Source: a virus (Duplodnaviria > Caudoviricetes). Taken from it: a stretch of DNA of 64,000 nt. Shown piece by piece: positions 3,730-41,236 of this stretch (position 1 is its first letter; the number at the start of each line of letters is the position of its first letter). The stretch covers positions 1 to 64,000 of IMG/VR virus record IMGVR_UViG_3300028591_000168; one strand, 5' to 3'. The notes below the pieces were generated by a model, which worked only from the letters and a program-made list of their open reading frames with translations, made no database searches and had not been told where the DNA came from. The translations under genes and the position numbers were made by a program.

Positions 3730-6700
3730 TTATTCCTGAAAAGATACCAACTTGTCGTCGTGTTTTTCGAGACGGACCGTAACAGTATCGCTGCCCATGC
3801 TGACAGGCAACGTAACGAACACGTTACCGTCATTGTCAACTATGACGTCCTTAATGTACACGTCGCAACCGAGATTGTCGCAAATTTCGTTCAGGCCTTT
3901 GACAAACGCATCCTTGTCGGTATCGAAGAAAAAGCCTGCCAAGCAGCAGAGATTGGTTTGCGCCTGTTCGAAGATCTCTTTGTTGATCTCGTTGACTTCT
4001 TGTTCGCTTTGGAGAGCGTTGGGTCTCTTCACTTCAACTTCGTAGTATTTTTTGACAAATTTCTCGCTGCCGTACACCTTGTACCATTTTTCCCACGTTT
4101 CGTCGTCAGGATCTTCGTAAACGGCAAGTACGACTTTGGGCGTTGTGGAAACGATATCCCCCTTGTCTTGAACGTCAGGCGTCTTCTCTTCTTCGGGGAT
4201 AAGTTCTTCCTGTTCTTCTTCTTGATCGCCTTGATCTTCTTGTTCTTCTTCTTGATCGTCTTCGTCGTCTGCCTTGTCGTTCTGTTTGCCATTGACTATC
4301 TCAACAGCTTCCTTGCCGCTTGCGAAGCAGAATCCCTTGGCGCTGAACTTGGGCTTGTTGTCCTTTTTAGGAGCAGTGTCGTCGTCGGGAGTGTTATCGT
4401 CCTGCGGATCTTCGGGATCTTCGGGATCGTCATTGTCTTTGTTGTCTTTGTTGATATCAGATTGCGGATCGTCGGTAGCTTCAACAGCAGGTTCTTCACC
4501 GCCGTCTTCTACTTCGGTATCAGCAGTGATATCACCAGGCACAGTCGGTTTGTCCTGCTCATTCTGTTCACCCTGTTCGTCCTGCTGATCCTGTTCACCA
4601 AGGTAGAAAGCCTTGACTTCTTCGATAAAGGCAGCGAAGGACAAGCCGCGTTTGATAGCCGACGTAACGCTGCAGCCCAAGAAAGATCTGGGGATACCCG
4701 CCTTTTTAGCCTTGGTGCCGTCAGCAGCAGCGATAAGATCGTAGCGTGCTTGTTTGATCTCGACAACCATAGCAGCCACGTCAGCTACAGACAGGTTCTT
4801 GTCGATCAAGGCCTGGATATTGAGGCCGTTGAAGACACTCGGCATACGACGTGCCTTCTTGCTTTGCTTAACACCAGTGGTCGTGTTCTGTGCTGCCGCA
4901 AGCTCTGCTCTCAGCGCAACGATTTCTGCGTCTTTTGCCTTGATATCGGCTTTGAGTTGCTCAAGCTCTTCGCTGCGGCTCATCGTGCCAAGGTGATATA
5001 CAGTGGCGTGCTCTTCGCAAAACTCTCTGTACATCTTCTTGACCTGGTTCTGAGTTTCTGCGCAGAAAGTGGTAACGTAGAAGTAAGATCCTTCTTTGTT
5101 ACCTTCGATATGGCGCTTGTCCCAATGCCCCATGTCGCAAATCCAGCATTTAATGTCGTCTTGTTCTTCAATCTTCTTCTCTTGGAGAAGAATCTTTTTG
5201 ACGATCTTTGCTACTACCACTTTCGGGTGCTTCAGCGTTCTGAAGCTGAAGTTCGGAATGATATCACGTGCCGTAGCGTCGTCGACAACAACAGAGAACA
5301 CACCTACGTGTTCCCCGTTAATGGCGAATGCGCCGCAGCAACGGACAGCGCCGTTGATCTTGTTGAGATCCCAGGTTTCGCACCCGGTCAGAGCGCTTTC
5401 GCAAACGGGCGTGACCGGAGTTATTACCAACAACGGTTTAACCATAACGAAACCGTCGCCTTTCTCCACGACACCGAGGCTATACTTATTAACTACAGCC
5501 GCGCGCTGAATAGTGTGAGTGCCGAATGTTCTGCTGAAGATATCCGGCTCTTTTTTCGTCTCGTCCTTCTTTTCGGCAGCAGTTCCCTTGGACGACGGAA
5601 CGTTGACTTCGAAGCCAGCTGTCAACAACGCGCAGGAAAGTGCCGCAACGTTGTCGGGGTTAACACGGACGGTAACGACCTGTCCGTTGTTTTTGATCGC
5701 GTTCATAACGTTTGTGACGCTATACGCGACAATAATGACGCCTGTGTTCGGCATTTTGATATCCGGATCTGCGTTAATGTACGTGTTCCGGAAGTTCCGG
5801 TTCGTGTCGAGCGGGTTCAGGGCGCCGCTGATAATGGTGATTCTTCTCATTGCTTTCTCCTCCTCTTTGTTGCTGTTGCCGTTGTTGTTGAGATCCTGAT
5901 TTTTGTCCATATTGTTTTCCTCCTTATTGTTCTTCTGCCATTCGCCGTCGACCCACACTTTTGTCGTAGTGGGCCAATCTTTGATAGCGCTAAGAATGAT
6001 CGGGTGTACGATTTTCCAGTCAAGGTGCCCTTTGCCTGTTCCCAATCGCGGAATCGCTACCGAATCGGGTTTGTTTTTGCAAATCCAGGCAGTCAGCAGT
6101 TTGAGAGAACTTTCGATCAGCGGATAATAGCTGTCTCTTTTGAAGTGAACCTTCGTTGCTAAGTTAGCAACAGTCACGTCACCTTTTTGCCAAACGTTCA
6201 GCCATCCGTCTTTGCAGAATATGTCGGTAGCGATATCAAGATCTTCGTCAGAGATATCTTTGTTGATACCGCTATTTTCGCATTCGGCTTTATAGTCTAC
6301 GAGCATAGCGGGGAAATTGTCGGCGAACTGTTTTGCCAAACCTGCTCCCATTACGCCGCAAACGTTGACGGGGTTAACCAGCACTTGCGCGTTGGTTTCA
6401 AATATGTTTTTAGTGTCTACCAATTGTCTTATTTCGTTGCTGCAGTGACTTTTGCAGTTAGCGCAGTCACCTTGACACTCGTTGCCTTCGTGTCTTGCTG
6501 CTTGATAGCAGTAAAGGCACGCGTGCGGGCACTGCTGCCCCTTGTGTTCCAACAGCTCGAATTTGTTGGCAGGGCACATGCACCGCTTCCGCTGAGGGTT
6601 GGATCCGGGCGGCATCATTTCTGAAACGGGTATCCCGAACAGAATGAAGTCGTCCTCACTGATACACCCTTTTTTGTGGTGACGGGGCACGTCACTTTCT

Positions 6701-7302
6701 GCGCAAGCACCGAAAACGCACCCCTTTTTTTCCATATCCAGCGTAAACTGGACGAACTCTGCTACCAGCGGGTTGTGCATCGAGCAGTCACCCGCTTGTT
6801 GCGTGTTCATTTTGGTGCCCAACTTCTCTGACGCTTCTTGCATTTTTCCCCCTATGAGAGAGTAAACGTCGGCGAAGCTGTAACGAAACCGACGGAACCC
6901 TGCGTTAAAGGCAGTCGTCACGATTTCTTTTGCAACGTCGATTGATTGCTCTTTCAGCACAAAAATGTGCGCCGGCACAATGGGGTCTACCCTGATCACA
7001 ACGTGATCCTTCGGGAAACCCTGGTTGCAGAACTCTACGAGTTTTTGGAAGCGTTCTCTCCATTCCAGAACTCCACGTTCCAGGAAGGTGTTGCCCAGTC
7101 CCGTTATAGTAGCGTGCAGGACGTACTTTTCCGGGTGAGCCAGCAGCTCAGCTTGCCCTTTGCTCGACAGGCATCCTTTCGTAACGATTACGGCTGCGGG
7201 GCAGATACCTGCCTGCATTTTGGGGATCCACTCTTCGTGCCAGGTGGGATCGCCGTCCTCGGTAATACCGATTTTTACTATTTCTTTCATTTCTTTTTCC
7301 AT
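3730..7302 (-). CDS. multidomain protein: DUF1848/radical-SAM-like N-terminus, DarG-like macrodomain, unknown domain, acidic region (1190 aa)
   Basis: IVTK, LHATITGLG, VIRVDPI and CPHACLYCY motifs; NPVNVCGVMGAGLAKQF...ATK...SVAIPRLGTGKGHLDW macro motifs; AAGGAGG RBS. Confidence 0.75.
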   Translation of the reverse strand: MEKEMKEIVKIGITEDGDPTWHEEWIPKMQAGICPAAVIVTKGCLSSKGQAELLAHPEKYVLHATITGLGNTFLERGVLEWRERFQKLVEFCNQGFPKDHVVIRVDPIVPAHIFVLKEQSIDVAKEIVTTAFNAGFRRFRYSFADVYSLIGGKMQEASEKLGTKMNTQQAGDCSMHNPLVAEFVQFTLDMEKKGCVFGACAESDVPRHHKKGCISEDDFILFGIPVSEMMPPGSNPQRKRCMCPANKFELLEHKGQQCPHACLYCYQAARHEGNECQGDCANCKSHCSNEIRQLVDTKNIFETNAQVLVNPVNVCGVMGAGLAKQFADNFPAMLVDYKAECENSGINKDISDEDLDIATDIFCKDGWLNVWQKGDVTVANLATKVHFKRDSYYPLIESSLKLLTAWICKNKPDSVAIPRLGTGKGHLDWKIVHPIILSAIKDWPTTTKVWVDGEWQKNNKEENNMDKNQDLNNNGNSNKEEEKAMRRITIISGALNPLDTNRNFRNTYINADPDIKMPNTGVIIVAYSVTNVMNAIKNNGQVVTVRVNPDNVAALSCALLTAGFEVNVPSSKGTAAEKKDETKKEPDIFSRTFGTHTIQRAAVVNKYSLGVVEKGDGFVMVKPLLVITPVTPVCESALTGCETWDLNKINGAVRCCGAFAINGEHVGVFSVVVDDATARDIIPNFSFRTLKHPKVVVAKIVKKILLQEKKIEEQDDIKCWICDMGHWDKRHIEGNKEGSYFYVTTFCAETQNQVKKMYREFCEEHATVYHLGTMSRSEELEQLKADIKAKDAEIVALRAELAAAQNTTTGVKQSKKARRMPSVFNGLNIQALIDKNLSVADVAAMVVEIKQARYDLIAAADGTKAKKAGIPRSFLGCSVTSAIKRGLSFAAFIEEVKAFYLGEQDQQDEQGEQNEQDKPTVPGDITADTEVEDGGEEPAVEATDDPQSDINKDNKDNDDPEDPEDPQDDNTPDDDTAPKKDNKPKFSAKGFCFASGKEAVEIVNGKQNDKADDEDDQEEEQEDQGDQEEEQEELIPEEEKTPDVQDKGDIVSTTPKVVLAVYEDPDDETWEKWYKVYGSEKFVKKYYEVEVKRPNALQSEQEVNEINKEIFEQAQTNLCCLAGFFFDTDKDAFVKGLNEICDNLGCDVYIKDVIVDNDGNVFVTLPVSMGSDTVTVRLEKHDDKLVSFQE

Positions 7303-7331
7303 TGTGAAAACCTCCTTATAAAGTAACAGTT

Positions 7332-7488
7332 TTGATATCAACACAAAAAGACAGAACAATCATAACAGTTACACAGAAGATAACTTCCAATAGTTTGGGA
7401 CCTTAGCTGACGGCCACTCAAACTCTTTGCTATAACTGATATCTGCGTAACTGTTACTCTTGTTCTGTCTTTGTTGTGTTGATATCAA
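7332..7488. other. 157-nt long imperfect inverted repeat (rod-like hairpin)
   Basis: TTGATATCAACACAA-AAAGACAGAACAA ... TTGTTCTGTCTTT-G-TTGTGTTGATATCAA; inner TAACAGTTAC/GTAACTGTTA. Confidence 0.85.
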
Positions 7489-7491
7489 GGA

Positions 7492-9927
7492 TTAACGGGT
7501 GGTAGCAGGCCAGTTGCTCACGTTGTCCAGAACGACGATAATTTGCTGCTTGCAGTTCTCGTCGTTGCTTTGAGTCTCGATCGTCTTGATAAACGAGATC
7601 TTGCCAACGATCCCGCCGTCTCCTGACGTGTTAGTGACAGCTTTTGCCACCTTCCCGAACATACAAATTTTATTTTGCAGCCCGTGGATTTCTTCAGGAA
7701 CCTGAGCGAAGTCGTTAACGCCGCAGATCACCCCGTTTTGCCTGATAACGATATTGTCGAACTTTTGCAGTTGTCTCTGTTGCCAGAGTGCAAACTCCTT
7801 AGGATTTTTAGCTTCCTTGGGAAGTTCGACTTCGATGCGGGCGACGAACTGCCGCTTGAGGTCAGCTGTCTTTTGGACAGAGACCTGTTTTCTGATATCA
7901 CCCTTAGCGAAGAAGCAGCCGTCTTGAACGGTGATATCAAACCAACCGTTCAGATTTTCGCTGCCTGTCAAAGCCAGGTAGGTGTTGCCTTCTTCGTCTT
8001 GTTGCCAGCAACGCCCTTCTTCAAAGAAGAGCTTTTTGCCTTCGAAGAAGCTTGCAACCTCCTCAGGGTAGTACTCGTTCGCCTCCTCGAGCTCTTGCGT
8101 CCCGAGATGTACCCTGTCTTTGGTAACAGGTTCGACCCCGTCATACTTCTCTGCGATATCAACGCACCACAGGAAGTATTCTACAGGCAGCAGATAACCT
8201 GCGCAGTTGGACAGGTTTTCCCAGGTCACACTTGTCCACGCAGGGAACCAGTGTTTGTCGTAGTTCTCGCTCCACGACAAGAACGTCATACCGAGAACCA
8301 GCATGGCCCTCTGCTCGAAGGCGAGCGCTTTTCCTGTGTTGTGCAGGAATATAGTTTCTACCTTTTCGAGATACGCTCTCAAGGTGAAGGACAATGATTC
8401 GAACACTTGTTGCTTGTCCCGCTTCAGAGCTTTTTCTGCGCGTTGTTTGTCTTCGCCGGAAAGCCGCTGCTCCTTGTCAGCGGGCAGCACAAAGGTGTTG
8501 ATAACTTGCTGCCAGGTTAGTTTGATATCCTTCAACGTGTTGGCGAAGTATTTGTCACCTACTTTCTCTTCGACCTCGCAAAAGGTATCTACTATTTTGT
8601 AGTAGACGTCTTCGGGGAGACCCCACTGAGTTACGCACCCTTCTTCGTCGACAGGCGTATACGCTGCCAACTGCTGGGCAAACGCGTACAGTCTGCGGAA
8701 CAACGGTTCACGCAGATATTGCCCAAGATCGTACAGGATAACGTTAGTAACTTCACCTTTCCGATTCACCCTTACTTCGGTTTCCCAAAGCTCAGGTGCG
8801 TCGATCTTGTCGTACACGCTATCCTTGATCTTCCCTTCGAATACAGGGAGTAGCTCGCCCGTTGCCGTCTTGATCATCGAAACTTCGATATCTTGACGGC
8901 TGAGAGCCGTTGTCAGCTTGAACGCTTCAAGCTCAGGTTTTGTCACCATTGAAAGAATGGTAAACTTTTTGTCAGAGTCGATTATCGGCTCACCGTGTGC
9001 GCCTTTCATCGACTCTATCGTCATAAAGACCTCATACAATGTTTCGAGTGGCATACTGCTATGGCACCACATCGCCACCTTCATAGCAAAAGGTACGCGT
9101 TTAGCTTCAACCTTAACTGCTCCTTGTATATTTTTCTCTTCGCAGTATTTTTCCAGCTCAGCAAACGAGCCGAACTTGCGAGATTCGTAGTCGACAAACT
9201 TGTCGGGATTGCCGTCCCAAGTGCCCAAGGTAAAAATGGGCTCTTCCAAAATGCCGACTTTGAGAACGCTTGAAACTGCCTCAGCGTCCTCACTCGTATT
9301 CGTCTTGGAGCGGTAGGCATGCATAGCCTTCAGTGCGCCATCGACGGAAGTCGCAAGCTTGTAAACGTCGCGACCTTCTTCGTCGTCTCGGCCCATACCG
9401 AATTCAAGAGCTTCATCCAAGGTTTTGAAACCTTTTTTGATCAGCTGCTTGACGAAAGCGCAGCTTGTGTTCGCCGCGTTAACTTTTGAAATAAAAATGC
9501 TGATACTGATATCAGCGAGATGCGAGTGACGGCAGAAAATAACCGCCCCGTTTTGTGCGAACGCTTCGCGCGGCTTTTCGAAGTCTATCTGCACTTGGCA
9601 GTCGGCTTCGGTTAGGCCTTTTTCGCCCGTAACAAACGCGTCTGCGTTGTTTACGAGAAGGTCGTGCATAGCCTTAACGTCCATCGCGTTTTTGTAAATC
9701 TGTTTGGCCATGTTAAAGCTGGCCTGTACAAACTCGTCCCTTTCTATCGGGACGATAATGTCGATATATTGTTTGAGTCTTTTGTTCCACTGCAACTGCA
9801 GTTTCGGCTCGATTCGTCCCAATGCAGTGGGGGGCTGAATGGCCCGCAGAACGCGTCTTACTTTCTTTTTGGTTTCCCTTCTGATTTCCTTTTCTTCCTT
9901 GTGGGTCATTTTTCTTGTGATCGTCAT
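7492..9927 (-). CDS. 811-aa protein, possible C-terminal half or second subunit of a YonO/cRdRP-like RNA polymerase
   Basis: AGGAGG RBS; directly follows the DFDGD ORF; ISKVNAAN and DIEVSMIKTATG weakly resemble the cRdRP post-catalytic motifs (lG.I.N, VDfpKTG). Confidence 0.45.
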   Translation of the reverse strand: MTITRKMTHKEEKEIRRETKKKVRRVLRAIQPPTALGRIEPKLQLQWNKRLKQYIDIIVPIERDEFVQASFNMAKQIYKNAMDVKAMHDLLVNNADAFVTGEKGLTEADCQVQIDFEKPREAFAQNGAVIFCRHSHLADISISIFISKVNAANTSCAFVKQLIKKGFKTLDEALEFGMGRDDEEGRDVYKLATSVDGALKAMHAYRSKTNTSEDAEAVSSVLKVGILEEPIFTLGTWDGNPDKFVDYESRKFGSFAELEKYCEEKNIQGAVKVEAKRVPFAMKVAMWCHSSMPLETLYEVFMTIESMKGAHGEPIIDSDKKFTILSMVTKPELEAFKLTTALSRQDIEVSMIKTATGELLPVFEGKIKDSVYDKIDAPELWETEVRVNRKGEVTNVILYDLGQYLREPLFRRLYAFAQQLAAYTPVDEEGCVTQWGLPEDVYYKIVDTFCEVEEKVGDKYFANTLKDIKLTWQQVINTFVLPADKEQRLSGEDKQRAEKALKRDKQQVFESLSFTLRAYLEKVETIFLHNTGKALAFEQRAMLVLGMTFLSWSENYDKHWFPAWTSVTWENLSNCAGYLLPVEYFLWCVDIAEKYDGVEPVTKDRVHLGTQELEEANEYYPEEVASFFEGKKLFFEEGRCWQQDEEGNTYLALTGSENLNGWFDITVQDGCFFAKGDIRKQVSVQKTADLKRQFVARIEVELPKEAKNPKEFALWQQRQLQKFDNIVIRQNGVICGVNDFAQVPEEIHGLQNKICMFGKVAKAVTNTSGDGGIVGKISFIKTIETQSNDENCKQQIIVVLDNVSNWPATTR

Positions 9928-10024
9928 TTTATTTTCCTCCTAAAATAGTGTAAAAGAAACAATAAAGGGAAGAACAGCGTACGCTTTCAGCTGCCCTTCC
10001 CTTTCAGCGGCTAACTGAGTGGAG

Positions 10025-13000
10025 TTACCCTTCTACCACTTCAACCTGGAGCGACGGATCCGCCATTGCCCCAGTCCCCATGTGGTTTACTCCGTTGTCA
10101 ACGTTTTTGGGATATCTCATTGAGAACTTCAGGGTGACGCTATGTTCACCCTCAGGATCCCACGCGTATTGCTTAATTCCGTACTCGTCGACGAACTCCG
10201 TTGCCTTTTTGTCCATAAACAAGAGATACAAGGAGTCTCCGTCAAAGTCACAGCCTTCATTCAGGCGCATTACGAAGTGATTTGCCGGAATAACGACTAT
10301 GCCCTTAGACAGACTCTTGATTGTTCTGACTGTCGTGTCGATCAGGTCTTGGCTGATCTCTCCTTGATCTTTCAGCTCTTGGCCTTTCGCTACAACTCTG
10401 GCTATATACTCTTCTCTCGATATGGTTCTTGCACAGGGATCAGAAGAGTACATATCTGTCACCAAGCCGTTTGCACCAAGCACGCAGAACCCTGCTACCA
10501 TGCTTGCGATATCAGGCAGGATCATACAGTGAGTGCCGTCGATCGGCAGGTTAAGCTTGCCAAAGTTTTTGTTCAACTTCTTCAAGCTTTGTTTGACTAC
10601 ACGCAGGTAATCGTGCTTGAAGTAGTTGAGTGCGAATTTGGGGTCAAGCTTGTGCGTGACGTCGACAAGGTTAGGATCCTTTTGAACAATCCTTTCCTCA
10701 CCGGTGTCTTCGTCGATCTCTGTTGTGTAACGGGTAACGAAGTCGTCAACAGAAACCGTACGATCTTCTCTGCCAAAGATTTTTGCTTCTTCTTCTTGGA
10801 TCATAATAGACCCTAAGATCTCGCACATAAGCATTGTCTTTGACAAGTCACGCTTTGCAGTTGAGCACAGCATTTGGGTGCTGGTAACTGCACGGTGGTT
10901 ATCACCGTGAGCGATAGACAAGACTTTCAGTCCGCTCTTGTATTTCCAAGGCATATGAGCTGTCTTCTGCCCGTTAGCGTCAGTCAGGTACTCAACAGGT
11001 GCACCGTCGTCTTCACGAGTAGCGTAGAAGTAGATAACCTTGTTGACAATAGTCTTGTGTTCTACGCCACGACTGTCAACAAGAACGGTACCTTCGTTGA
11101 TATCAGCTTTGAACTTCCTGACACCAAGTTTCATCCAAACGTTCTGTTGCTCTTCTGTCATCTCGTTAACGTAGAAGACAATCGGAGTGCCTGTCTGCTC
11201 TATAAGCGTATGAATCTTTGCGTCGATAGTTTCCTGATCAACGATCAATCCTGTACGCTTGTTGACGTTATAGGCACGTTCTTGCAAAAGCAGTCCGACC
11301 AACAGAGCAGCTTCAAAGACAGTTTTGCCTCCTGTTTCTTCCGTAAAGCTTGCGGCGGCAAACAAAGCACTGATAAATCCTGTGCCGTCCATTCCTTCGA
11401 AGCCCTTACGGTCTTTGAACTTGCCAGAAAATACAACGTAAGATCTGAACGCTTTCTTGAAGTGATGGGCAAACGCGTTAGGCAGAACCATACGCTGCAT
11501 AAACTCTGCGTTGGCCTTGAAGTCATAGTCACCGAACAACGAGAATGCCTCAACGGCTCCGCACGTCATAGCGTTATACACCTGATCCCAGTTAACGCCA
11601 CGAGTAGCGTCAGGACCGGTATACGTGCCGCACATCCTAATTTTGAAGTTCTTCAGTTCGCCGGTAGACGAAGAACAATAGGCAGGTGTGTACGTATAAA
11701 ACCCGTTCTGATTAGCATACTCTCGCCATTCTTTAGCCGTGCAAAGGTTGCCGTTGACGATATTGAGCATAAACGAACTGTCTGCGGTTTTTACCACTCT
11801 CCAGAACGTGTCATTTCCGTCCTTAGAGATAACCTTGAACAAGGTCATTAACTCCGCTTTGACTTTGTTGCCTTTGATCTGTTTAATGTCAAATATCTGG
11901 CAGATATCCTCCCAGCTGTTGACAGACAAGATCAGACAGTCGTCCGAGTAGTTCTCCTTGTAACGTTCGCTGTTGTTGCTTTCTTTGCAGAAACGCCCCT
12001 CCTTTTGAACAAACAAGGAGAATACAGAAGAGTGATCGTCCAACAGATCGATAAAGACCTTGTAGCTGATCTCTTTGACCTTGTCCGAAACCTTTCTGCT
12101 CTGTTTCTCAAAAGACAGAATCGAGAACGTTACGTTACGATCTTTACGATCCATAAATTGTTTCCTGAATGCCTCTATGCAGTCTTGCTGCGTTTTCAAG
12201 AAATACTGCGCAGGCCTGTTAAACCTAACGCCGCCCTTGAGATTGCGCAGCATTGCAAGACCCTTCTGAGCTTCAGGTTCTTTTACTGCTCTCTTTACCG
12301 CTGAAATTACCTCCTCTCTGTTTTCAAGGTCAGCGAACCCCTGGTGTTTCTTGAGAATACCGATATCTTTCTTCAAGAGTTCACCGACAACGGCGTCAGC
12401 TTTTTTGCCGACAAGCCCGTTAACGAACTTGACGTAAGCAGCGATGCCTGCACTGCGCTGTTCTTTGAGAATGTTAATCGCCTCCTCTTTAGTAACAGTA
12501 GCCCTGTCGTCTCCGATAACTTGGTAAGTTCTGTACTTAACGTAAAGTGCATACCAAGGATCTTCACTGCTGATATCAGCAGCTTTAATCTTTTCGAAGA
12601 CATTAAGAGCCGTTTGTTCTATTCTGGAGTATTGCTCCAGCTTCTGATAACGGCAGAGTACCCATGCCGCCTTTTTAACAGCTCTAATCTCACGAAGATA
12701 CTGGATAAGGTTATTAAAGACAGTGTAGTAACTGCCGTTGACCTCATTGCTTGACAACACTTTGTTGATATCTGCGATTTTGGATACAAACTTAACGTTG
12801 TCCGCAATCGAGATAGCTTTCCTGTAGTGCCAAGCCAAGTTATCCAAAGCTTGATCAAGCTGTTCTTCAAGGCGCTTAGCACTGCCGCCTCTTTTAATAG
12901 CTTCGTAAACAGCTGCTAAAATTCTGGCGGTTTTGTCCTGCTGCGCTGCCTTGTCAGTCACTTTGTCGTCCTGTTGCGGCAACCTGTCAACCACAGCTTC

Positions 13001-14305
13001 GATATCAACGTCGCTGAACAAAGCTCTCGCAACTTCTTCCGTCACGTTCTGCAGCGGATTTTCTTCGTTAGCGTTTTGGAAGAAGTCATATACGACATCG
13101 TTTGCACTTTGTTGTTCTTCGATAAATATCCCCTCCTTAAAGTTAAAACGAATCCCTGCTGTTTGCAAGATAGCAAGAGTCATAGCAGTTCTTTTATCTA
13201 AGTCATAGACGTCGATAACATTGCTGCCCGGTTTCTGCAATACAAAGTTCATAAACTTGTTGGCAGATACGAACTCAACGTCTACTTTGTGATCCAGACG
13301 TTTAATTGTGAAGTTATCGTTGTAACCGCTGTGGCAGCATGCAACCTTGATCGTCTTAACAAGATCTGGCCTGAAGTCAGACCAAGCTGCTGTTTCATTG
13401 GTAAGATACAACATCCACTCCATCTTGACTCGGGTAGCCAAAGCGTCAGGTCTGGCGACACCGTCAATTGCACAAATGCCGCCTTTTTTGCCGCCATGGC
13501 AGATTAACAACAATGTTTCTTCGTCAACGGAGTACATAGTCCAACTTGCGTTAACGTTGGGTTGCAATCCCCAAGTGTCGTTGTCGTTGCCAGACATTGC
13601 GACTACTCTGTTAACAGCAACGCTATGTTTGTTGCAACGGTTGAGCAGTGTAGAAAACAGAGTCTTGCTGGCAGTTTTAGTCGCGTCAGGGGCGTATTTG
13701 TTTACAACTTTGAGACCGTCAGCAATTTTTCTGGCAGCAACTTTAATAATAGACTTGACAGTCTTCTTAATTGCTTGATTGCCACCAAGAACTGTTGCTG
13801 TACCGTTAGCCCAAGCTTCCCAACGGTATCCGTCTTGTACGTCTGCTGTGACGGCAGCTCCGGTTTCTGTTTGGCTCTCCCGCGTCAGCTGTTTGTAAAG
13901 CTGTTTGGTCAGGCCCCACGTGTTAGCGTAGATTCTGCCGAAGCATTGCGGTCTGGACAAGAAAAGCTTCAGGTCAGACCAAAAATGCGCCTGCTTGCTT
14001 TGTCTGACGACAATGCAGGCCGCCATTACGACAGCGGTCTTGCGTGCCCACATGGGGAATACCGCTTTTTGCCGTGCAGTGCGTTCAGCCTCAGCCTTAG
14101 CTTTAGCCTCAGCCTCAGCCGCGTGAGCCTTCATTGCTGCGAGCGCGTTTTTCAGCGCCCTTTTTTCGTCGCGGTGAACTTCTGCCCACGCTGCCTGGAT
14201 ATCAGCGCAGACAAGCTCGTTCTTTGTAGTTGAGATAATGAGATTGGCGACGGAGCCGCCCTTTGCCGCAATAGCAGCGGTGATCATTTTTTCTTTCAAC
14301 AACAT
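10025..14305 (-). CDS. YonO-like / cellular-RdRP-family (double-psi beta-barrel) RNA polymerase (1426 aa)
   Basis: MDGTGFIS (DGxGxIS), LQERAYNVNK (QxR..K) and GIVVIP...GCDFDGDSLYLLFMD (catalytic DxDGD at ~10235-10249); AAGGAGG RBS. Confidence 0.7.
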   Translation of the reverse strand: MLLKEKMITAAIAAKGGSVANLIISTTKNELVCADIQAAWAEVHRDEKRALKNALAAMKAHAAEAEAKAKAEAERTARQKAVFPMWARKTAVVMAACIVVRQSKQAHFWSDLKLFLSRPQCFGRIYANTWGLTKQLYKQLTRESQTETGAAVTADVQDGYRWEAWANGTATVLGGNQAIKKTVKSIIKVAARKIADGLKVVNKYAPDATKTASKTLFSTLLNRCNKHSVAVNRVVAMSGNDNDTWGLQPNVNASWTMYSVDEETLLLICHGGKKGGICAIDGVARPDALATRVKMEWMLYLTNETAAWSDFRPDLVKTIKVACCHSGYNDNFTIKRLDHKVDVEFVSANKFMNFVLQKPGSNVIDVYDLDKRTAMTLAILQTAGIRFNFKEGIFIEEQQSANDVVYDFFQNANEENPLQNVTEEVARALFSDVDIEAVVDRLPQQDDKVTDKAAQQDKTARILAAVYEAIKRGGSAKRLEEQLDQALDNLAWHYRKAISIADNVKFVSKIADINKVLSSNEVNGSYYTVFNNLIQYLREIRAVKKAAWVLCRYQKLEQYSRIEQTALNVFEKIKAADISSEDPWYALYVKYRTYQVIGDDRATVTKEEAINILKEQRSAGIAAYVKFVNGLVGKKADAVVGELLKKDIGILKKHQGFADLENREEVISAVKRAVKEPEAQKGLAMLRNLKGGVRFNRPAQYFLKTQQDCIEAFRKQFMDRKDRNVTFSILSFEKQSRKVSDKVKEISYKVFIDLLDDHSSVFSLFVQKEGRFCKESNNSERYKENYSDDCLILSVNSWEDICQIFDIKQIKGNKVKAELMTLFKVISKDGNDTFWRVVKTADSSFMLNIVNGNLCTAKEWREYANQNGFYTYTPAYCSSSTGELKNFKIRMCGTYTGPDATRGVNWDQVYNAMTCGAVEAFSLFGDYDFKANAEFMQRMVLPNAFAHHFKKAFRSYVVFSGKFKDRKGFEGMDGTGFISALFAAASFTEETGGKTVFEAALLVGLLLQERAYNVNKRTGLIVDQETIDAKIHTLIEQTGTPIVFYVNEMTEEQQNVWMKLGVRKFKADINEGTVLVDSRGVEHKTIVNKVIYFYATREDDGAPVEYLTDANGQKTAHMPWKYKSGLKVLSIAHGDNHRAVTSTQMLCSTAKRDLSKTMLMCEILGSIMIQEEEAKIFGREDRTVSVDDFVTRYTTEIDEDTGEERIVQKDPNLVDVTHKLDPKFALNYFKHDYLRVVKQSLKKLNKNFGKLNLPIDGTHCMILPDIASMVAGFCVLGANGLVTDMYSSDPCARTISREEYIARVVAKGQELKDQGEISQDLIDTTVRTIKSLSKGIVVIPANHFVMRLNEGCDFDGDSLYLLFMDKKATEFVDEYGIKQYAWDPEGEHSVTLKFSMRYPKNVDNGVNHMGTGAMADPSLQVEVVEG

Positions 14306-14342
14306 TTTTAACGCCCTCCTTAAGGGTAAACAGAATATTAAC

Positions 14343-14361
14343 AACGGCTTTATATAAACAC
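14343..14361 (-). promoter_or_regulatory. Class II upstream motif GTGTTTAYATA(A/GAT)AGCCGTT, copy 1 of 6
   Basis: Also at 15859, 16686, 20121, 22824 and partially 28719; 31-39 nt before the start codon in 5 copies. Confidence 0.65.
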
Positions 14362-14403: not shown

Positions 14404-14434
14404 AAAAGCCCCTCAGGTCAGAAACCCAAGGGGC
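14404..14434 (-). terminator. intrinsic terminator
   Basis: GCCCCT...AGGGGC stem with a T run on -. Confidence 0.6.
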
Positions 14435-16007: not shown

Positions 16008-16652
16008 TTATCTTGTCCTGTAGAACAATTCCACAAGGTTGTCAGCCTCGTAGAACGTCCAAGACAAGTTGTGATAGTCTATGTCTGCAATTGCTACGGT
16101 CTTGCTGCGGTTCATAAAGTGGACCTTAATGTTAAAACCGTAGCTGTTCTCGAAAGAGAAGTCGGCGAGCATACCGCCGTAGCAGCACATCACGTTAACT
16201 GTGATATCACTGTTGACTTCGACGTAAGCCCACGACAAGATATTGTCAATGAGTACCCCTATGTCGTATTCGTCGCACGATACTTCGGGGTCTGTCTCGA
16301 ATACCTTTGCGTACAAACCACCCTGGCGTGCACCGTGGCAAAAGAGAAAATACTCGTTGTCAGCAGTAACGCCGAGCAGCCAGCCGCTGCCTTGGGGCAC
16401 GCCGCCGTAGCATTGTTCTTCGTACACAACGCGTTTCAGCTGCACGTTATGAACTGCGAAGTTACCGCCGTGGCGCAAGTACCACGATATGAAATCGCAG
16501 ACGCTTTGTTTCTGTTCGCTATCCGATTTCCACCAAGCGTCAAGGCTGAACGCAAGGTGGTCTTTGATATCGATCGTGCACGGGTTCAGAACCGGTGTAT
16601 AGGTGTTAGCCTGCTCGATAGTGCCTTCTACTTCTGTGATTTCCCATTTCAT
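16008..16652 (-). CDS. hypothetical protein (214 aa)
   Basis: GGGAGG RBS; class II motif 34 nt upstream. Confidence 0.8.
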   Translation of the reverse strand: MKWEITEVEGTIEQANTYTPVLNPCTIDIKDHLAFSLDAWWKSDSEQKQSVCDFISWYLRHGGNFAVHNVQLKRVVYEEQCYGGVPQGSGWLLGVTADNEYFLFCHGARQGGLYAKVFETDPEVSCDEYDIGVLIDNILSWAYVEVNSDITVNVMCCYGGMLADFSFENSYGFNIKVHFMNRSKTVAIADIDYHNLSWTFYEADNLVELFYRTR

Positions 16653-16743
16653 AGTAAAAACCTCCCAAAATAATAAAGTGTTAGTAACGGCATCTATGTA
16701 AACACACCATAACAGCACCAACGGCTTTGGCGGTGTCATAGTG

Positions 16744-34597: not shown

Positions 34598-37500
34598 ATG
34601 GCGTTACCTTTAATAGAAAGATTGCTTAATGCCAGAGGAATTTCTGACACTACCGCTATCAAGAACTTTCTAAACCCCCATACCGCTTTCGAAAACCCCT
34701 TTATGATGAAAGATATGTACAGCGCAGTCAGCAGAATCGAAAGAGCTATCAAAAGTGGTGAGCGGATAACTGTTTTTGGTGATTACGACGTTGACGGGGT
34801 ATCAGCTACTGCGATAATGTATCGTACCCTGTCAGATCTTGGAGCTGCTGTTGATACCTACATTCCTAAGAGATCTGAAGGATACGGTCTTAACAGTAAC
34901 GCTCTCAAAAGTCTTGCTGAAAAAGGTACTAACCTGTTAATAACGGTTGACACGGGTATCGGTAACGAGAAAGAGATCTCTGAGATCGCTGACAAGTTTG
35001 ACGTTATCGTTACCGATCACCACCTGGTACCTGAGGGTGGTGTGCCGTCAGCCGTTGCTGTCCTTAATCCGCACCAAGCAAAAGATTACTATCCTAACAA
35101 AAATCTTAGTGGTGCAGGCGTTGCCTTCAAGCTTAGCCAAGCCTTGAGAAACAAGATAACAGGTGCTGATATCCAAAAGTCAGTTGAAAATCTTGAACTT
35201 GCAGCGTTAGCTACCGTTGCTGACGTTGTGCCTATGACAGGAGAGAACCGAAAGATCGTAGCTGACGGCTTAAAGGCTATCCAAGCGTCGCAAGATAAGG
35301 CAATCCAAGCACTGTTAAAAACGACAGATCTTGCACAAAAAAAACACCTTACTGCTGAAGATATCGGTTTTAAAATAGCACCCCGTATTAACGCTGCAGG
35401 CAGGGTAGAAGATCCCGGCATAGCGCTGTCCTTGTTCACTCTTGATCAACAAGAGAACAAAGCTGTCTTTCAAAAAATAGCTGATTCTTTGTCCGAGCTT
35501 AACAAGAAGAGAAAAGCTATAGAAGCTGATATCGTTCAAAGTGCAGAAAAACAGCTGTTACAACTGCGACAACAAACAGGCGGTTATATCAGTTCCGTCA
35601 TTGTTGAAAACAAAGGGTGGCACGAGGGCGTTGTAGGTCTTGCGGCAGCAAGGTTATCTGAAAGACACAAACTGCCGTCGATAGTGCTAACCAGCGAAGA
35701 CGGCAAGATCTATCACGGATCTGCCCGCAGTGTACCGGGCTTTAACGTTATGGATGCGCTTAGGGAAACTGACAAGTTCTTGCTAAGGTATGGCGGTCAC
35801 GAACAAGCAGCAGGTTTAGTCATAAAAGCAGAGAACCTTTCTGCCTTCAAGGCTGCGTTTGATAACTTTGCAAGGGATAACTTTCCGTCTCTTGCTGCTC
35901 TTGAACTTGTAGACGCAGATCTGGATCCTGCAGAAATAACCTTAGCTGACGCTAAAGAACTTGAAAAGATGGGGCCTTTTGGTGTTAACAACGAAAGACC
36001 AATTTTTGGAGTCTCTGACGTTAGGGCCAGTGACGTTAGAACAAGCAGTGACGGTAAACACTTGTTTTTTAATATTGGCGATAAACGTGCTGTAGCTTTT
36101 GGTGCAGGTAACCTGGAAGACTTAGTTAGGGACAGCAACGTCGACGTTACCTTCTCTCTTGATATCAACGAGTTTAGAGGAACAGAAAACGTTCAGCTTA
36201 ACGTTAAAAGTGTAAGGCCTGTTGCCGGTAACTCTGTTAAGGCCTTGTCTGACACTGTTATCCAAGATATCTACAAGTTCTTGCAGACAAGAAGCAATGA
36301 ACCTTTTAACGTTAGTACCTTGGCTGCTGACTTCAGTAAAAAAACAGGTGTGCAGATATCCGGGTATGACTTTGGTACAGCTACTAAGATCTTGGAAGAG
36401 TTAGGACTTTTTTCTGCTGTAGTTAATGACGGATCTGTTTTTACTGCAAGTCATAATGGTAATATCAACTTTACCGGCTCACAAACTTACCGTAACCTTA
36501 AAGGTATCACCTTATCAGGGGCACCTGTTCGAGTTATTCCTGTCTCTGATCCTGTTGAAAATGTAACACCTGTTACTCCTGCCCCTTCTGTATCACCTTC
36601 TTCCGGTACACCTACCGTTGCAGCGTCAGTAACACAAGATATCGTCGTATCACCACCACCTGTGGCAGAAGAAACGGCAGCAGCAGTTATTACAGAAAAT
36701 GTAGCTGCGCCGGTAGATCTTGTAACGTTGCCTGAAGAAAACATTTCTGCTGAGACAGTTGTTAAGGAAACAGAAAAAGCCGGTATTGTCGTTGATACGC
36801 CAGATGCTCCACCTGTACCGGTACAAGAAGAGATATCTGCAGCAGTACAAAAGGATCTCAAGATTACTCGTGATATCCCGGAAGTTTGGGACTCCGTTTC
36901 TGTTAACACTGCAGCTGACGTTGCTGCCCCTGTTAAACCTACGCTAGTATCTGTTGACCCTAAAATAGCTGACAGAGTTCGTAATATGAAACAGAAGTTA
37001 GCAGAGAGTAAAAAGCAAAACAGCACAAAGCCTAAACAAGAACGACAAAAAAGACAAACGGATATCAAACCGACAAAGCCTGAAAAAAGAGAGCAGTGGT
37101 TTATTGACAGGATCAATGAACTTATAAAATATTTTCGTTATCCGTTACCCGCTAATGACGCACCATTAGATGAAATTTTATTGAGCAAGATTAGAGACGA
37201 AAGTTTAAGAACACAGATAAGCTATCCTGATCCTGATCTTGTTGACGAGAAGACTTACATACAAGAACTTATACGTCTTAAGGAAGAACAAGCCAGCAGA
37301 GATCTTGACGCCTTAAAAAAAATTATTAACGTTAAGACCGACGAACTTGGTAAAAAACTTGTTGATATCAGGCTTAACGAAATAGGAAGCGCTGCAGAAG
37401 AAGCTCTCAGAGAAAGTTACGAGAGTGGCAATATTGAGGCAGCAACTACGTTCTATGACGAAGATCTCGCAAAAGTCAGAATAAGAAAGAAATACGTAAA

Positions 37501-40500
37501 AGGTAAAGACGGACAAGAGTATCTGAGAGATACTTCAGCTGAAACTACTCTTAATGAGTGGTTACGGCAACTTTCTGACACAAAGTATCCCGGAGTAACG
37601 AAACAAGCTAAAGAACTGAGAGAACGTTATATCGCGCTTTCCGGAAAACAGGATTACAAACAACCGGGATCTACTCTTCACAGAGAAACGATAGTCTTGC
37701 GAGAGAAGATAGGCAAAGAGATAGCAAAAAGAGCAGGCAAAGATATTGAAGACAAGGTCAAAGATCTGGCTTCCAAGGGCGGCTCTCTTCTTTATCGCAG
37801 AATAGCTGACAGGATTACAGCTTTAGATAATGACGTATTAACAGCAGAACAGCAAGGCATTATCAACAGGTTAATGTTTAACTTTGAGACTGACGTAGAC
37901 ATTTTTGAGTCTTACCAACAGATTGCAAAAACTTTAGGATTAAAGGTTAAGTTTAAGAAAGACCAGTCAGCTGTCGACAAAGTTAAGATTTATCGCAAAG
38001 AGTTAAGCGAAAGACTTGAAGAAATCAAAGGAAGACAAGATATCGACAAGATATCACTTGGTTACCTTGACCTGATATCAGCTAACAAAGATAAAGACGA
38101 CGAAGGTTATAAGGCTGCCAAAAAGCAACTGATAGAAGCCAGGACAGACGGACTTTGGAATTCCAGGGTTAGAAACCTTGAAAATCCCAGCCAAGGTAAG
38201 CCTACCGAAAATCTTGCACTATGGTTAAGATATGCTGACGTTGCTATTGCAGATCAACAACAGAGACGAGCTGAGCTTTTAGATCCTAACATAAGCTTGG
38301 AACGTTTTAACGAGCTGTTAGAAGATCCCAAGTATAGACACGTAATGCCCAGGGTATCCTACACTAAAGACGGTAAACAAGCTACAAGAATGGCAGGTAC
38401 GAGATTTAACAATAAGTTATATCGTGTTGGCATATCGGGATTAGCTGATATCGACCTTGATCGTCTTAAGACTGACGTTGCAGAAGTATTGGCTCCGTTC
38501 TACGACAGTATCAGAGAGAGTCATAACCGTATTATTGCAGCAAGAAGCTTAACCGAAAAAGGTTTGTCTGATCAGATTATATCGCTTCAAAATTCTTTAA
38601 CTGTTACCCCTCCCAAGGAAGGCGACTACAGGCTTAAAAGACTTAAGGGAGTACAAAAACTTTATGATTACGTAACAAATGATCCTACCAAGGTAATCCA
38701 AGATAAAATTGAAGAAAAAGGCTATACCGCAGGTCTGCGTAAGGCCATTTACCTTGAAGAAAAACTAAAAATAGAAGCTGACATTTACGAAACTGATCCT
38801 AACGCAAAAATATTGCTTAGCAGAGATCTTAAGGGTGACGAAAGATTATCTGCACTCCGTGATATCAGAACTCAAAAACAATGGGCTGCTGCTGATATCC
38901 CTATATTGTCTGAGGGACTTTCTGCTCCTAACTTTGTTGGTAAACAATCTCTTGAGAAACAATGGCGTTGGTGGCAAACTGCTATTAATAACGTAAGACA
39001 ACTTTCAAGCGAATCTTTTGAGGACGTTCAAGAACGTCTTCGTAATTTAGAATCTTCTGAAAGAAAAAACTACCTTAAGTCACTTCCAAAAGATTATATT
39101 GTTGAGGTTAAAGGCGCTGCTGCAGGAGACTCTTCTATCTTTTATAGGACTATCGCTGACAAGGAAATATTAGATGAGTTTGAAGAGAAACTAAATACTA
39201 CAATAAAAACTTTATTTGAACAAGATCGACAGGGACTAATAGAACATTATAATAAAAGACTAGAAGATCTTGATACCAGACGTAAGATGCTTGAAGAAAA
39301 AGATGCCGCAGAAAAAACTAAGGAAGACACAGAAGAATTAGAGAAGATACTCACTACAGAACAAAAACTACAGAAGAAACAAACTGCTCTGAGTGAAGCA
39401 GTTGATCCCGTTACCAGGATTGACGAAAAAGCTGCAATACAAGGTCAACGTATTTCTTGGAAACAACAAAGTGCAGAAATTTTACAGTTACAACGTGATA
39501 TCAGAGATATCATTCCGTCAATAAGCTTTAAGGATATCTTTGACGAAAGAGAAAAAGACACTAAAGTTGACAAAAAGACTAAGTATTCTAACAGAGTTAT
39601 AGCGTTAAGAGAAATTCATGATGAGTTAAAAGCAGTACAACAAGAATCGTTTGATGATTTCCAAAAAAGAGTAGCAGACTTAGGATCTCTTCCTGCGTGG
39701 TTACCAAAACATAGTCTTATCAAGATAGGTAAAGAAGAAGGACAAAATGTTCGTTATTATCGTACTTTCGTTGACGAAGATACTCAACAGCTTGATAAAG
39801 AAATACAAGAGAATCTTAATACCATTAGAGAAACAGACGAACAAATACAAAAAATCTTTAAAGAACAAGCTAATAAGAAGTTAGAGTATCTGCAAAAACA
39901 GGAACAGCAATATCCTACACCTGACGGATCACAAAGAAAACAAGCTATAGAGAGATTAACTGACAGATTAGAAAAACTTAAAGATCAATCTAATGCTGCT
40001 GACCAGATAGAAAAAATTGGTGGTTATAACGCAAGATATCAGGTAGCACAAAGAGAAGCTACCAACTTGCCCACAAAGCTAAAAATTTTACAAGCAGATC
40101 CTAACTATCACTTTGACGAAGATTTTAAGTATGACACAGCTAATGAGGTTATTACTAACATTCAAAATGATACTAAGGCCCTTGCTGATATCAAAGGAAA
40201 ATATGAAGGTTACGATAACGAATACTTGTCAAGGTTTAAGCCTATAAAAGAACAACTTGATTGGTGGCAAACCTTTGATCAAGAGTATCAATGGTTAACT
40301 ACAGCTACACAAAAACAAGTTAGTGATAAACTCAACAGTTTTGACAGTGAAGAATTCAGAAACTACAGAAGGTCACTTCCTGATAACTTTTTTGATACTT
40401 TCTTTGTTAAACAAGATAAAATATGGTACAGGATAGGCACTGACGTAAGTGAACAAGAAGCTGACGTCATGAGGAAACGACAAGAAGAATACAACAAAGA

Positions 40501-41236
40501 TAAAAAGGAACGCGAGAAAGTTATTCTTAATACAGGGCAAAAACCTGTGCCTTCTGTTACTGCTCCTAACGTCTTTGGAATTGCTAACAGCAGCAGAATG
40601 GCTGACTCTTCCGTTATCGACAAAGTAACAGAAATGTCGAAGCTTACCGGACAAGCTTTTTCTGACAGTTATGATCAACTGCTGGTGACAGAACGAGAAG
40701 TATATGATCGTAACTTTGGTAAACCGATAAAAAGCAACGGTGTTTGGTACCAAAACATTTTTGTAATGCCAAATGACGCGTGGAAAGACTTTGAGGAACA
40801 AAACGGTCGTGCCATTCCGAGAGTAAGACCCGGTGTAGACAAACAAGAGTCTTATGACGTTGTTGCCGAACAGGAACTACAACAAAAGATAACTGCTGAT
40901 ATCAGAGAAAGATCTTGGAACTTTGTACCAAAAACCAGACCTGCGCTACCTGCACAGCAAACGCCGTCTTCACCTTCTGTTACACCGGAGACAAAAGAGA
41001 CAGCAGCTAAAACTGTAAGGCCAAAACCAGTTGCAGTAATCAAGGAACAGAAGAGTGCTATCGAGAAGGTATTACAAGAACTGAGATCACCTACTACTAT
41101 GAAGTCGATGGGTATGATGGGATTAGCAGGCGCCTTTGCTCTTTGGAATATGGCAATGACAGGACCGTCAAGAGAAGCACAAGAACACAGAAGAAGAGTA
41201 GAAGAAGAGAGAAGAATGAGACAGTATGGTTATTAA
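34598..41236 (+). CDS. recJ: RecJ (DHH) ssDNA exonuclease fused to a ~1500-aa linker, coiled-coil region and hydrophobic tail (2212 aa)
   Basis: GDYDVDG, ITVDTG, TDHH, LATVADVVP, PRINAAGR, GSARS, YGGHEQAAG, PFGVNNERP in the first ~600 aa. Confidence 0.9.
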   Translation: MALPLIERLLNARGISDTTAIKNFLNPHTAFENPFMMKDMYSAVSRIERAIKSGERITVFGDYDVDGVSATAIMYRTLSDLGAAVDTYIPKRSEGYGLNSNALKSLAEKGTNLLITVDTGIGNEKEISEIADKFDVIVTDHHLVPEGGVPSAVAVLNPHQAKDYYPNKNLSGAGVAFKLSQALRNKITGADIQKSVENLELAALATVADVVPMTGENRKIVADGLKAIQASQDKAIQALLKTTDLAQKKHLTAEDIGFKIAPRINAAGRVEDPGIALSLFTLDQQENKAVFQKIADSLSELNKKRKAIEADIVQSAEKQLLQLRQQTGGYISSVIVENKGWHEGVVGLAAARLSERHKLPSIVLTSEDGKIYHGSARSVPGFNVMDALRETDKFLLRYGGHEQAAGLVIKAENLSAFKAAFDNFARDNFPSLAALELVDADLDPAEITLADAKELEKMGPFGVNNERPIFGVSDVRASDVRTSSDGKHLFFNIGDKRAVAFGAGNLEDLVRDSNVDVTFSLDINEFRGTENVQLNVKSVRPVAGNSVKALSDTVIQDIYKFLQTRSNEPFNVSTLAADFSKKTGVQISGYDFGTATKILEELGLFSAVVNDGSVFTASHNGNINFTGSQTYRNLKGITLSGAPVRVIPVSDPVENVTPVTPAPSVSPSSGTPTVAASVTQDIVVSPPPVAEETAAAVITENVAAPVDLVTLPEENISAETVVKETEKAGIVVDTPDAPPVPVQEEISAAVQKDLKITRDIPEVWDSVSVNTAADVAAPVKPTLVSVDPKIADRVRNMKQKLAESKKQNSTKPKQERQKRQTDIKPTKPEKREQWFIDRINELIKYFRYPLPANDAPLDEILLSKIRDESLRTQISYPDPDLVDEKTYIQELIRLKEEQASRDLDALKKIINVKTDELGKKLVDIRLNEIGSAAEEALRESYESGNIEAATTFYDEDLAKVRIRKKYVKGKDGQEYLRDTSAETTLNEWLRQLSDTKYPGVTKQAKELRERYIALSGKQDYKQPGSTLHRETIVLREKIGKEIAKRAGKDIEDKVKDLASKGGSLLYRRIADRITALDNDVLTAEQQGIINRLMFNFETDVDIFESYQQIAKTLGLKVKFKKDQSAVDKVKIYRKELSERLEEIKGRQDIDKISLGYLDLISANKDKDDEGYKAAKKQLIEARTDGLWNSRVRNLENPSQGKPTENLALWLRYADVAIADQQQRRAELLDPNISLERFNELLEDPKYRHVMPRVSYTKDGKQATRMAGTRFNNKLYRVGISGLADIDLDRLKTDVAEVLAPFYDSIRESHNRIIAARSLTEKGLSDQIISLQNSLTVTPPKEGDYRLKRLKGVQKLYDYVTNDPTKVIQDKIEEKGYTAGLRKAIYLEEKLKIEADIYETDPNAKILLSRDLKGDERLSALRDIRTQKQWAAADIPILSEGLSAPNFVGKQSLEKQWRWWQTAINNVRQLSSESFEDVQERLRNLESSERKNYLKSLPKDYIVEVKGAAAGDSSIFYRTIADKEILDEFEEKLNTTIKTLFEQDRQGLIEHYNKRLEDLDTRRKMLEEKDAAEKTKEDTEELEKILTTEQKLQKKQTALSEAVDPVTRIDEKAAIQGQRISWKQQSAEILQLQRDIRDIIPSISFKDIFDEREKDTKVDKKTKYSNRVIALREIHDELKAVQQESFDDFQKRVADLGSLPAWLPKHSLIKIGKEEGQNVRYYRTFVDEDTQQLDKEIQENLNTIRETDEQIQKIFKEQANKKLEYLQKQEQQYPTPDGSQRKQAIERLTDRLEKLKDQSNAADQIEKIGGYNARYQVAQREATNLPTKLKILQADPNYHFDEDFKYDTANEVITNIQNDTKALADIKGKYEGYDNEYLSRFKPIKEQLDWWQTFDQEYQWLTTATQKQVSDKLNSFDSEEFRNYRRSLPDNFFDTFFVKQDKIWYRIGTDVSEQEADVMRKRQEEYNKDKKEREKVILNTGQKPVPSVTAPNVFGIANSSRMADSSVIDKVTEMSKLTGQAFSDSYDQLLVTEREVYDRNFGKPIKSNGVWYQNIFVMPNDAWKDFEEQNGRAIPRVRPGVDKQESYDVVAEQELQQKITADIRERSWNFVPKTRPALPAQQTPSSPSVTPETKETAAKTVRPKPVAVIKEQKSAIEKVLQELRSPTTMKSMGMMGLAGAFALWNMAMTGPSREAQEHRRRVEEERRMRQYGY

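Follow-up and report, generated by a model that had tools for sequence, protein, structure and literature searches.

Two-barrel polymerases share a signature to which barrel B contributes an Asp together with two basic residues and barrel A a triad of Asp residues (PMC2919709). In QDE-1, the barrel-B set consists of D709, Q736-x-R738 and K743 (PMC2919709, PMC9508822). Further along the same chain come a bridge helix, with M1084, N1087 and R1091, and then a trigger loop (residues 1102-1136), in which V1115, D1116 and K1119 contact the incoming nucleoside triphosphate (NTP) (PMC9508822). The branch formed by QDE-1, SPbeta YonO and crAss phi14:2 gp66 is treated as one of single-subunit enzymes (PMC10770324, PMC7824862, PMC5467207). 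The two-barrel RNA polymerases (RNAPs) of phages have likewise been described as single polypeptides, with gp66 and P23-45 gp96 being virion proteins. We found no description of a split form of this branch in the literature that we searched. Here, we describe two adjacent genes in a phage sequence from IMG/VR (record IMGVR_UViG_3300028591_000168), ORF1 and ORF2 (ORF, open reading frame), which probably encode a single two-barrel RNA polymerase, made of two subunits and belonging to the QDE-1/RDR-like branch. The window, i.e. the whole stretch of DNA analysed, comprises the first 64 kb of this linear, 79.6-kb virus record, which is 55% complete by CheckV estimate.

Two genes and a two-barrel core

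Portal, major head and tail-sheath genes occupy the plus-strand arm of the window, and the virus is therefore a contractile-tailed phage. The other arm, on the minus strand (about 1.6-28.6 kb), carries non-structural genes and contains both polymerase ORFs:

10025..14305, minus strand: ORF1, gene for the predicted large (core) subunit, protein P0001, 1426 aa (ORF and translation, ribosome-binding site, homologues that agree with it at the start and at the C-terminal end)
7492..9927, minus strand: ORF2, gene for the predicted second subunit (C-terminal module, or C-module), protein P0002, 811 aa (ORF, homologues of similar length)
9936..9941, minus strand: ribosome-binding site AGGAGG of ORF2, 8 nt before the ATG at 9927

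ORF1 starts with an ATG that has AAGGAGG 8 nt upstream. An alternative TTG start at 14404 would yield a protein of 1459 aa; the homologues, however, open with the same MLLKEKMI. The two genes lie on the same strand in different frames and are separated by a 97-nt spacer.

ORF1 contains the motifs DGTGFIS (973-979), Q1008-x-R1010...K1016 and GIVVIP (1335-1340), followed by the catalytic stretch GCDFDGDSLYLLFMD at 1351-1365, which includes GCDFDGDS (1351-1358). The chain stops 69 residues past D1357. A preliminary description of this DNA had reported all of these motifs, a chain end about 60 aa behind the catalytic one and a separate ribosome-binding site for the 811-aa ORF, and each of these observations holds, with the motifs falling at residues 973-1365. 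Two features make up the predicted active site:

11258..11389, minus strand: active-site set of the second double-psi beta-barrel (DPBB-B), D973-G974, Q1008-x-R1010 and K1016, conserved in 54-56 of 57 relatives
10235..10249, minus strand: catalytic metal-binding loop D1353-F-D1355-G-D1357 of DPBB-A, invariant in 57 of 57 relatives; the model aligns with the Asp-triad barrel

In an alignment of 57 ORF1 relatives, D1353, D1355, D1357, G1351, D1109, K1114 and Q1144 are invariant. D973, G974, Q1008, R1010, K1016 and P1340 are retained in 54-56 sequences, the barrel-B residues D973, R1010 and K1016 among them in 55-56. This conservation shows that the motifs exceed chance. From the matching pattern, we infer that D973/Q1008-x-R1010/K1016 is equivalent to D709/Q736-x-R738/K743 of QDE-1.

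The close homologues of ORF1 number four (P0003-P0006), of which P0006 is cut short; the full-length close set (P0001, P0003-P0005) has an identical C-terminal end point. A profile search of 1.84 billion representative proteins retrieved 69 ORF1 relatives. The catalytic motif could be located in each of these core representatives; about 50 chains in a first count, and about 56 of the 69 in all, end 25-105 residues after DxDGD. Thirteen relatives are fused and run on for a further 570-1030 residues past this motif (P0028 is an example).

Known families capture little of this group. Neither ORF has a match in Pfam or PHROGs, and no RNAP domain of Pfam was found in ORF1 or ORF2. The RNA-dependent RNA polymerase (RdRP) family PF05183 is the sole Pfam family matched by more than one member, in 11 of the 57, always below threshold and with a best E-value of 0.0013. 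P0001 itself has no PF05183 match at E-values up to 1 and thus stays below the Pfam gathering score. No PDB sequence was matched by P0001 (phmmer) or by the 57-member core profile. Searches of 50,697 GenBank phage records with P0001, P0012 and P0036 (tblastn) returned nothing, and so revealed no YonO-family similarity in cultured phages, the YonO sequence itself not having been compared directly. Scans of IMG/VR with the ORF1 homologue alignment A1, with P0012 and with alignment A3 were equally empty.

The fold was more informative. We built an AlphaFold2 model from the 57-sequence alignment for the following part of ORF1:

10028..12208, minus strand: two-barrel polymerase core, residues 700-1426, with a slab-like part, DPBB-B and DPBB-A (AlphaFold2 model and structural matches)

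The model reached a predicted local distance difference test score (pLDDT) of 90.3 and a predicted template modelling score of 0.89. In a Foldseek search of the PDB, its 17 best matches were all QDE-1 or RDR2. VIA-align superposed it on QDE-1 with Z 14.7 and a root-mean-square deviation of 4.4 Å over 417 residues, and on RDR2 with Z 10-13. An exhaustive comparison with 48,161 chains placed two-barrel polymerases in all top seven positions: QDE-1 (Z 14.2), maize RDR2 (9.8), P23-45 gp96 (9.0 and 8.6, two crystal forms), P74 gp62 (8.4), crAss phi14:2 gp66 (6.1) and PolD (3.9). Beyond these seven came single-barrel matches to cellular and jumbo-phage RNAP subunits (Z 2.5-3.2), amid unrelated proteins. 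Here, the Rpb1/beta-prime barrel, which carries the Asp triad, covers model positions 553-727 and beta-like subunits cover 211-435. In BFVD, the core model matched uncultured-phage proteins, some of them labelled RNA-dependent RNA polymerase, and crAss-like proteins. By this model, ORF1 does adopt a two-barrel fold, in agreement with the double-psi beta-barrels anticipated in the preliminary description.

The best structural matches, QDE-1 of Neurospora and plant RDR2 (PDB 2J7N, 7Y7P-T, 7W82/84, 7ROZ; PF05183), both eukaryotic RNA-silencing polymerases, extend over the slab, DPBB-B and DPBB-A. They share with the phage pair the D...Q-x-R...K pattern in barrel B, DxDGD in barrel A and, as described below, an I-D-x-x-K motif like the trigger-loop contacts of QDE-1. 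In contrast to the phage proteins, QDE-1 and RDR2 each consist of one chain; in the phage, the cut corresponds to QDE-1 residue ~1031. Sequence identity is 11-12%, P0001 has a 700-aa N-terminal extension, and the host is a bacteriophage. P23-45 gp96 and gp64, P74 gp62, phi14:2 gp66 and SPbeta YonO belong to the same superfamily and share the phage setting, and P23-45 gp96 likewise carries DFDGD (PMC10770324). Nevertheless, the ORF1 fold is nearer to QDE-1 than to any of them. For gp66, Z values of 4.8-6.1 are well below that of QDE-1, and ORF1 and ORF2 lie outside the structural block. Taken together, the model predicts an enzyme that folds, and would work, like the QDE-1/RDR/phage single-chain branch.

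The C-terminal module and the history of the break

The superposition with QDE-1 pairs residues 487-1031 with model positions 22-722 and stops at QDE-1 residue 1031. Since the bridge helix and the trigger loop both lie beyond this point, ORF1 lacks both elements. The preliminary description had suggested that the 811-aa ORF supplies the missing C-terminal part, and two features bear on this idea:

7723..9117, minus strand: stretch of ORF2 aligned to the tails of fused polymerases (hhalign probability 99.4%, E 2e-21; tail hidden Markov model)
8965..8994, minus strand: candidate trigger loop G312-E313-P-I-I316-D317-S-D-K320-K321, the C-module motif with the highest conservation

Five proteins of 778-813 aa are homologous to ORF2, and a repeated word-index search, now with the alignment of ORF2, retrieved no more. 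When the ORF2 profile was compared by hhalign with a MAFFT alignment of 11 fused-polymerase tails, residues 272-713 aligned with a probability of 99.4% (E 2e-21), while controls with reversed or column-shuffled tails gave E-values of 0.2-0.9. A hidden Markov model (HMM) of the fused tails, run against all ORFs of the window, matched ORF2 alone (E 5e-26; next best 0.05). Over its first 270 residues, ORF2 shows poor conservation. ORF2 therefore aligns with fused C-termini and, as shown below, belongs to a conserved gene pair, which bears out the suggested origin as the missing part. The short echoes ISKVN and IKTATG, which had been offered as weak evidence for it, did not hold up as informative motifs: ISKVN (146-150) is partly kept in C-modules, but IKTATG (351-356) lacks conservation even among relatives at 37% identity.

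A different motif, GE..ID..KK, stands out. Its E and K are present in 21 of 21 split and fused C-modules and its I and D in 20 of 21, and it is preceded by a conserved helix at about residues 293-308 of ORF2. The I-D-x-x-K of ORF2 fits the hydrophobic-Asp-x-x-Lys pattern of the QDE-1 trigger loop, V1115-D1116-x-x-K1119 (PMC9508822). On the basis of this likeness, we propose residues 293-308 (approximately) as a candidate bridge helix and 312-321 as a candidate trigger loop.

The two-gene layout recurs. A scan of metagenomes, from which we counted how often the gene pair is conserved, found nine loci with the core gene, eight of which extend downstream. All eight carry an ORF of 640-935 aa on the same strand, 65-175 nt after the core gene. 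These downstream ORFs match the tail HMM (E 1e-48 to 1e-81) as well as the ORF2 family HMM (E 1e-7 to 1e-12). Their N-termini align with the fused proteins about 45-65 residues after DxDGD, i.e. at the same break point. The split itself, reported as apparent in the preliminary description, is thus confirmed; that account needs correction in that the cut is the commonest state of the family and no oddity of a single phage. Most family members appear to be heterodimeric, the cut lying between the catalytic barrel and the putative bridge helix and trigger loop.

We mapped fused and split states, scored from motifs, onto a FastTree phylogeny of 69 cores (a quick tree with some long branches). Fused forms are dispersed among split ones, with 10 state changes, at least eight of which are forced by well-supported branches, and the two states show no clustering beyond that of shuffled labels. 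The chain has thus been fused or split repeatedly, at least eight times across this tree, in a direction that the tree does not give. ORF1 belongs to a 13-member clade in which all proteins are split.

An accessory segment links the two subunits in another way. A 50-aa piece with the sequence WxDFQDWRRWSESVGDFVFDLQRF occurs in the N-terminal extension of P0004, a core subunit (residues 135-184), and in that of a C-module subunit in a different phage (L004:10122-12926, residues 139-188), with 60% identity and an E-value of 5e-16. Judging from this similarity, the piece appears to have moved between subunits. Its presence on either subunit fits two parts of one complex.

A predicted two-subunit polymerase and its alternatives

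We consider it quite probable that ORF1 and ORF2 encode two subunits of one predicted two-barrel RNA polymerase. This reading is supported by the fold of the core, the conservation of its catalytic residues, ORF2's homology to the C-termini of fused relatives and the recurrence of the gene pair. The ORF1 protein carries both barrels and all residues predicted to bind metal and the RNA 3' end (D973, Q1008, R1010, K1016, D1353/D1355/D1357), and its chain stops where QDE-1 continues into its bridge helix and its trigger loop. ORF2 most likely supplies these two elements, the bridge helix at about 293-308 and a rigid trigger loop with the GE..ID..KK motif at 312-321, which would keep the template aligned and put the incoming NTP in place. 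If bridge helix and trigger loop reside on ORF2, neither protein alone should be a complete enzyme. By analogy with the characterised phage relatives, the predicted polymerase most likely transcribes phage DNA.

The pair is probably expressed from one transcript that starts at a motif before ORF1 and reads through an intergenic hairpin. Two features are relevant here:

14337..14361, minus strand: promoter-like motif GTGTTTACATAAAGCCGTTRTTAAC (GTGTTTAyATAAAGCCGTTrTTAAy), from an alignment of six upstream regions
9964..10004, minus strand: 15-bp hairpin followed by a U-rich tract, between ORF1 and ORF2 (minimum free energy -35.5 kcal/mol, z -3.84 versus shuffles)

The promoter-like motif of ~25 nt lies 31-39 nt before five minus-strand starts, namely that of ORF1 and those at 15824, 16652, 20090 and 22785. 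It does not fit the standard -35/-10 spacing. The alignment of six upstream regions shows it to be absent upstream of ORF2. The presence of the motif before ORF1 and its absence before ORF2 suggest that the transcript of ORF1 also serves ORF2, running through or past the hairpin. The hairpin may be terminator-like, an attenuator or a stability element.

A sigma-70-like match (TTTACA-17 nt-TAAAAT, 10 of 12 positions) was also seen at 9926-9954 on the minus strand, where it overlaps the ribosome-binding site and start of ORF2. It lies too far downstream to yield an mRNA with the ORF2 start codon, and the number of such matches in the region is at chance level.

Several points weigh against a two-subunit, DNA-transcribing enzyme. 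The hairpin and U-tract could terminate transcription and so uncouple ORF1 from ORF2. The AlphaFold2 model of ORF2, built from six sequences, reaches a pLDDT of only 41 and is too poor to place a bridge helix or trigger loop. In the ESM Atlas, P0002 and P0009 have no model or a model at pLDDT 0.34, and no usable matches. The 11-member C-module profile found no match among PDB sequences. Counted across both proteins, the candidate trigger loop lies ~390 residues past DFDGD, as compared to ~105 in QDE-1. Finally, the nearest relatives of solved structure act in RNA silencing and have dual activity.

Four alternatives can be set beside this reading. The polymerase may be packaged in the virion and injected for early transcription, as are crAss gp66 and P23-45 gp96. 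This is compatible with two subunits, though it changes the role of the enzyme, and a profile search of the ORFs found no second polymerase core in the 64-kb window. However, both genes belong to the non-structural arm and are distant from those for portal, capsid and sheath, and with the record 55% complete a separate virion enzyme could lie in the absent part. We therefore regard packaging as unlikely, albeit worth keeping in mind.

The same two-subunit polymerase could instead act mainly as an RNA-dependent RNA polymerase during infection, producing antisense or double-stranded RNA in the manner of QDE-1 and RDR2. Such a role would agree with the nearest solved structures, which are cellular RdRPs, with the weak but recurring PF05183 matches and with the fact that QDE-1 has both activities (PMC9508822). 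All characterised phage members, however, are DNA-dependent, namely YonO (PMC5467207) and phi14:2 gp66, P23-45 gp96 and gp64 (PMC10770324), and the gene sits among phage genes with a common promoter-like motif, which leaves this role rather improbable.

We give equally little credence to a third scenario, in which ORF1 alone is a complete minimal polymerase and ORF2 an accessory factor for promoter specificity, processivity or regulation, fused to it by chance in some relatives. YonO has been reported to be active without detectable trigger-loop homology (PMC5467207), and the poor conservation of the first 270 ORF2 residues also counts in its favour. Yet the most conserved motif of the C-module resembles the NTP-contact motif of QDE-1, and in P23-45 gp96 (DFDGD at 779-783) a fragment of 1050 residues is inactive, whereas fragments of at least 1200 residues are active (PMC10770324).

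That the split is an artefact, be it a frameshift, a sequencing error or a pseudogene of a single-chain gene, as adjacent ORFs on one strand in different frames might suggest, can practically be dismissed: the break is conserved, with a 97-nt spacer containing a hairpin, a strong ribosome-binding site and an ATG, a common C-terminal end in full-length P0001 and P0003-P0005, about 56 independent protein clusters ending at the same point and eight independent loci with the same two-gene layout and spacers of 65-175 nt.

The two-subunit reading of ORF1 and ORF2 has parallels outside the QDE-1 branch. In cyanobacterial and plastid beta-prime (rpoC1/rpoC2) and in the N- and C-terminal beta-prime pieces of jumbo phages, the break falls between the Asp-triad barrel and the bridge helix (PMC7598289), so that the catalytic loop resides on one polypeptide and the bridge helix, together with the trigger loop, on another, as predicted here. 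These enzymes, however, belong to the multisubunit clade and have separate beta and beta-prime barrels, whereas here both barrels are on one QDE-1-like chain, and their matches to the core model are confined to single barrels at Z 2.5-3.2. The yeast killer-plasmid RNAP, pGKL2 Orf6 with the small Orf7, also combines a fused two-barrel chain with a separately encoded C-terminal piece (PMC2919709). It derives, however, from the multisubunit clade, as an Rpb2::Rpb1 fusion, and its second piece is small, compared with 811 aa here. We also considered a multisubunit enzyme of the beta/beta-prime type for the phage pair itself and rejected it, as both barrels are on one chain and the likeness is confined to the barrel level.

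Further features of the locus and implications

N-terminal to the core, ORF1 has two further features:

12506..14305, minus strand: N-terminal extension, residues 1 to about 600, present in the closest relatives only, with no Pfam or PHROG match
13106..13798, minus strand: insertion of ~230 aa at about residues 170-400, which P0004 and P0005 (57% identical) lack in alignment A1

Distant family members align only from about profile position 370-480 onward. The long N-terminal extension of the preliminary description is real, with residues 1 to about 600 being restricted to the closest relatives. Within the insertion, residues 243-350 resemble residues 109-213 of a stand-alone ORF of 243 aa at 16008-16739 on the minus strand (E 6e-4; phmmer E 4e-5). 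By this resemblance, the two appear to represent a small paralogous domain.

Just downstream of the polymerase pair, a 1209-aa ORF (3730-7359, minus strand) combines a DUF1848 match (E 7e-12) with a Macro domain (E 3e-6; PHROG 335 'phosphatase', E 1e-21). Among the head genes lies a 520-aa ORF (50626-52188, plus strand) that matches PHROG 1423 'reverse transcriptase' (E 3e-56) and could, by this match, be a component of a diversity-generating retroelement. The structural arm also holds a 2212-aa ORF (34598-41236, plus strand) with two DxDxD strings in a context that is not polymerase-like. It matches neither the core nor the C-module profiles, and a second polymerase core in the window was rejected as a candidate because none was found and this ORF has no family match. 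A cmscan of positions 1-30000 at gathering thresholds found no Rfam family.

As splits at an equivalent place are known in the multisubunit clade, the idea of a divided polymerase is not new in kind. What is new is a predicted two-subunit form of an enzyme that has been described as a single chain. It offers a natural system for making, mutating and titrating the catalytic barrels separately from the bridge-helix/trigger-loop module, and the split pair asks directly what a minimal two-barrel polymerase needs. Since Pfam, PHROGs and searches of PDB sequences all miss both genes, such phages are currently scored as having no RNA polymerase.

At its most speculative, and with only a slim chance of being correct, the finding may mean that this phage family is the closest prokaryotic-virus kin of the eukaryotic RNA interference polymerases and has kept RNA-templated synthesis. 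In that case, the C-module might be dosed separately via the hairpin, or be exchangeable, and so switch between template types or promoter classes. Independently of this conjecture, the genes described here belong to a sizeable phage family, represented only in metagenomes, whose structurally closest counterparts are the eukaryotic RNA-silencing polymerases and which bears on the origin of those enzymes.

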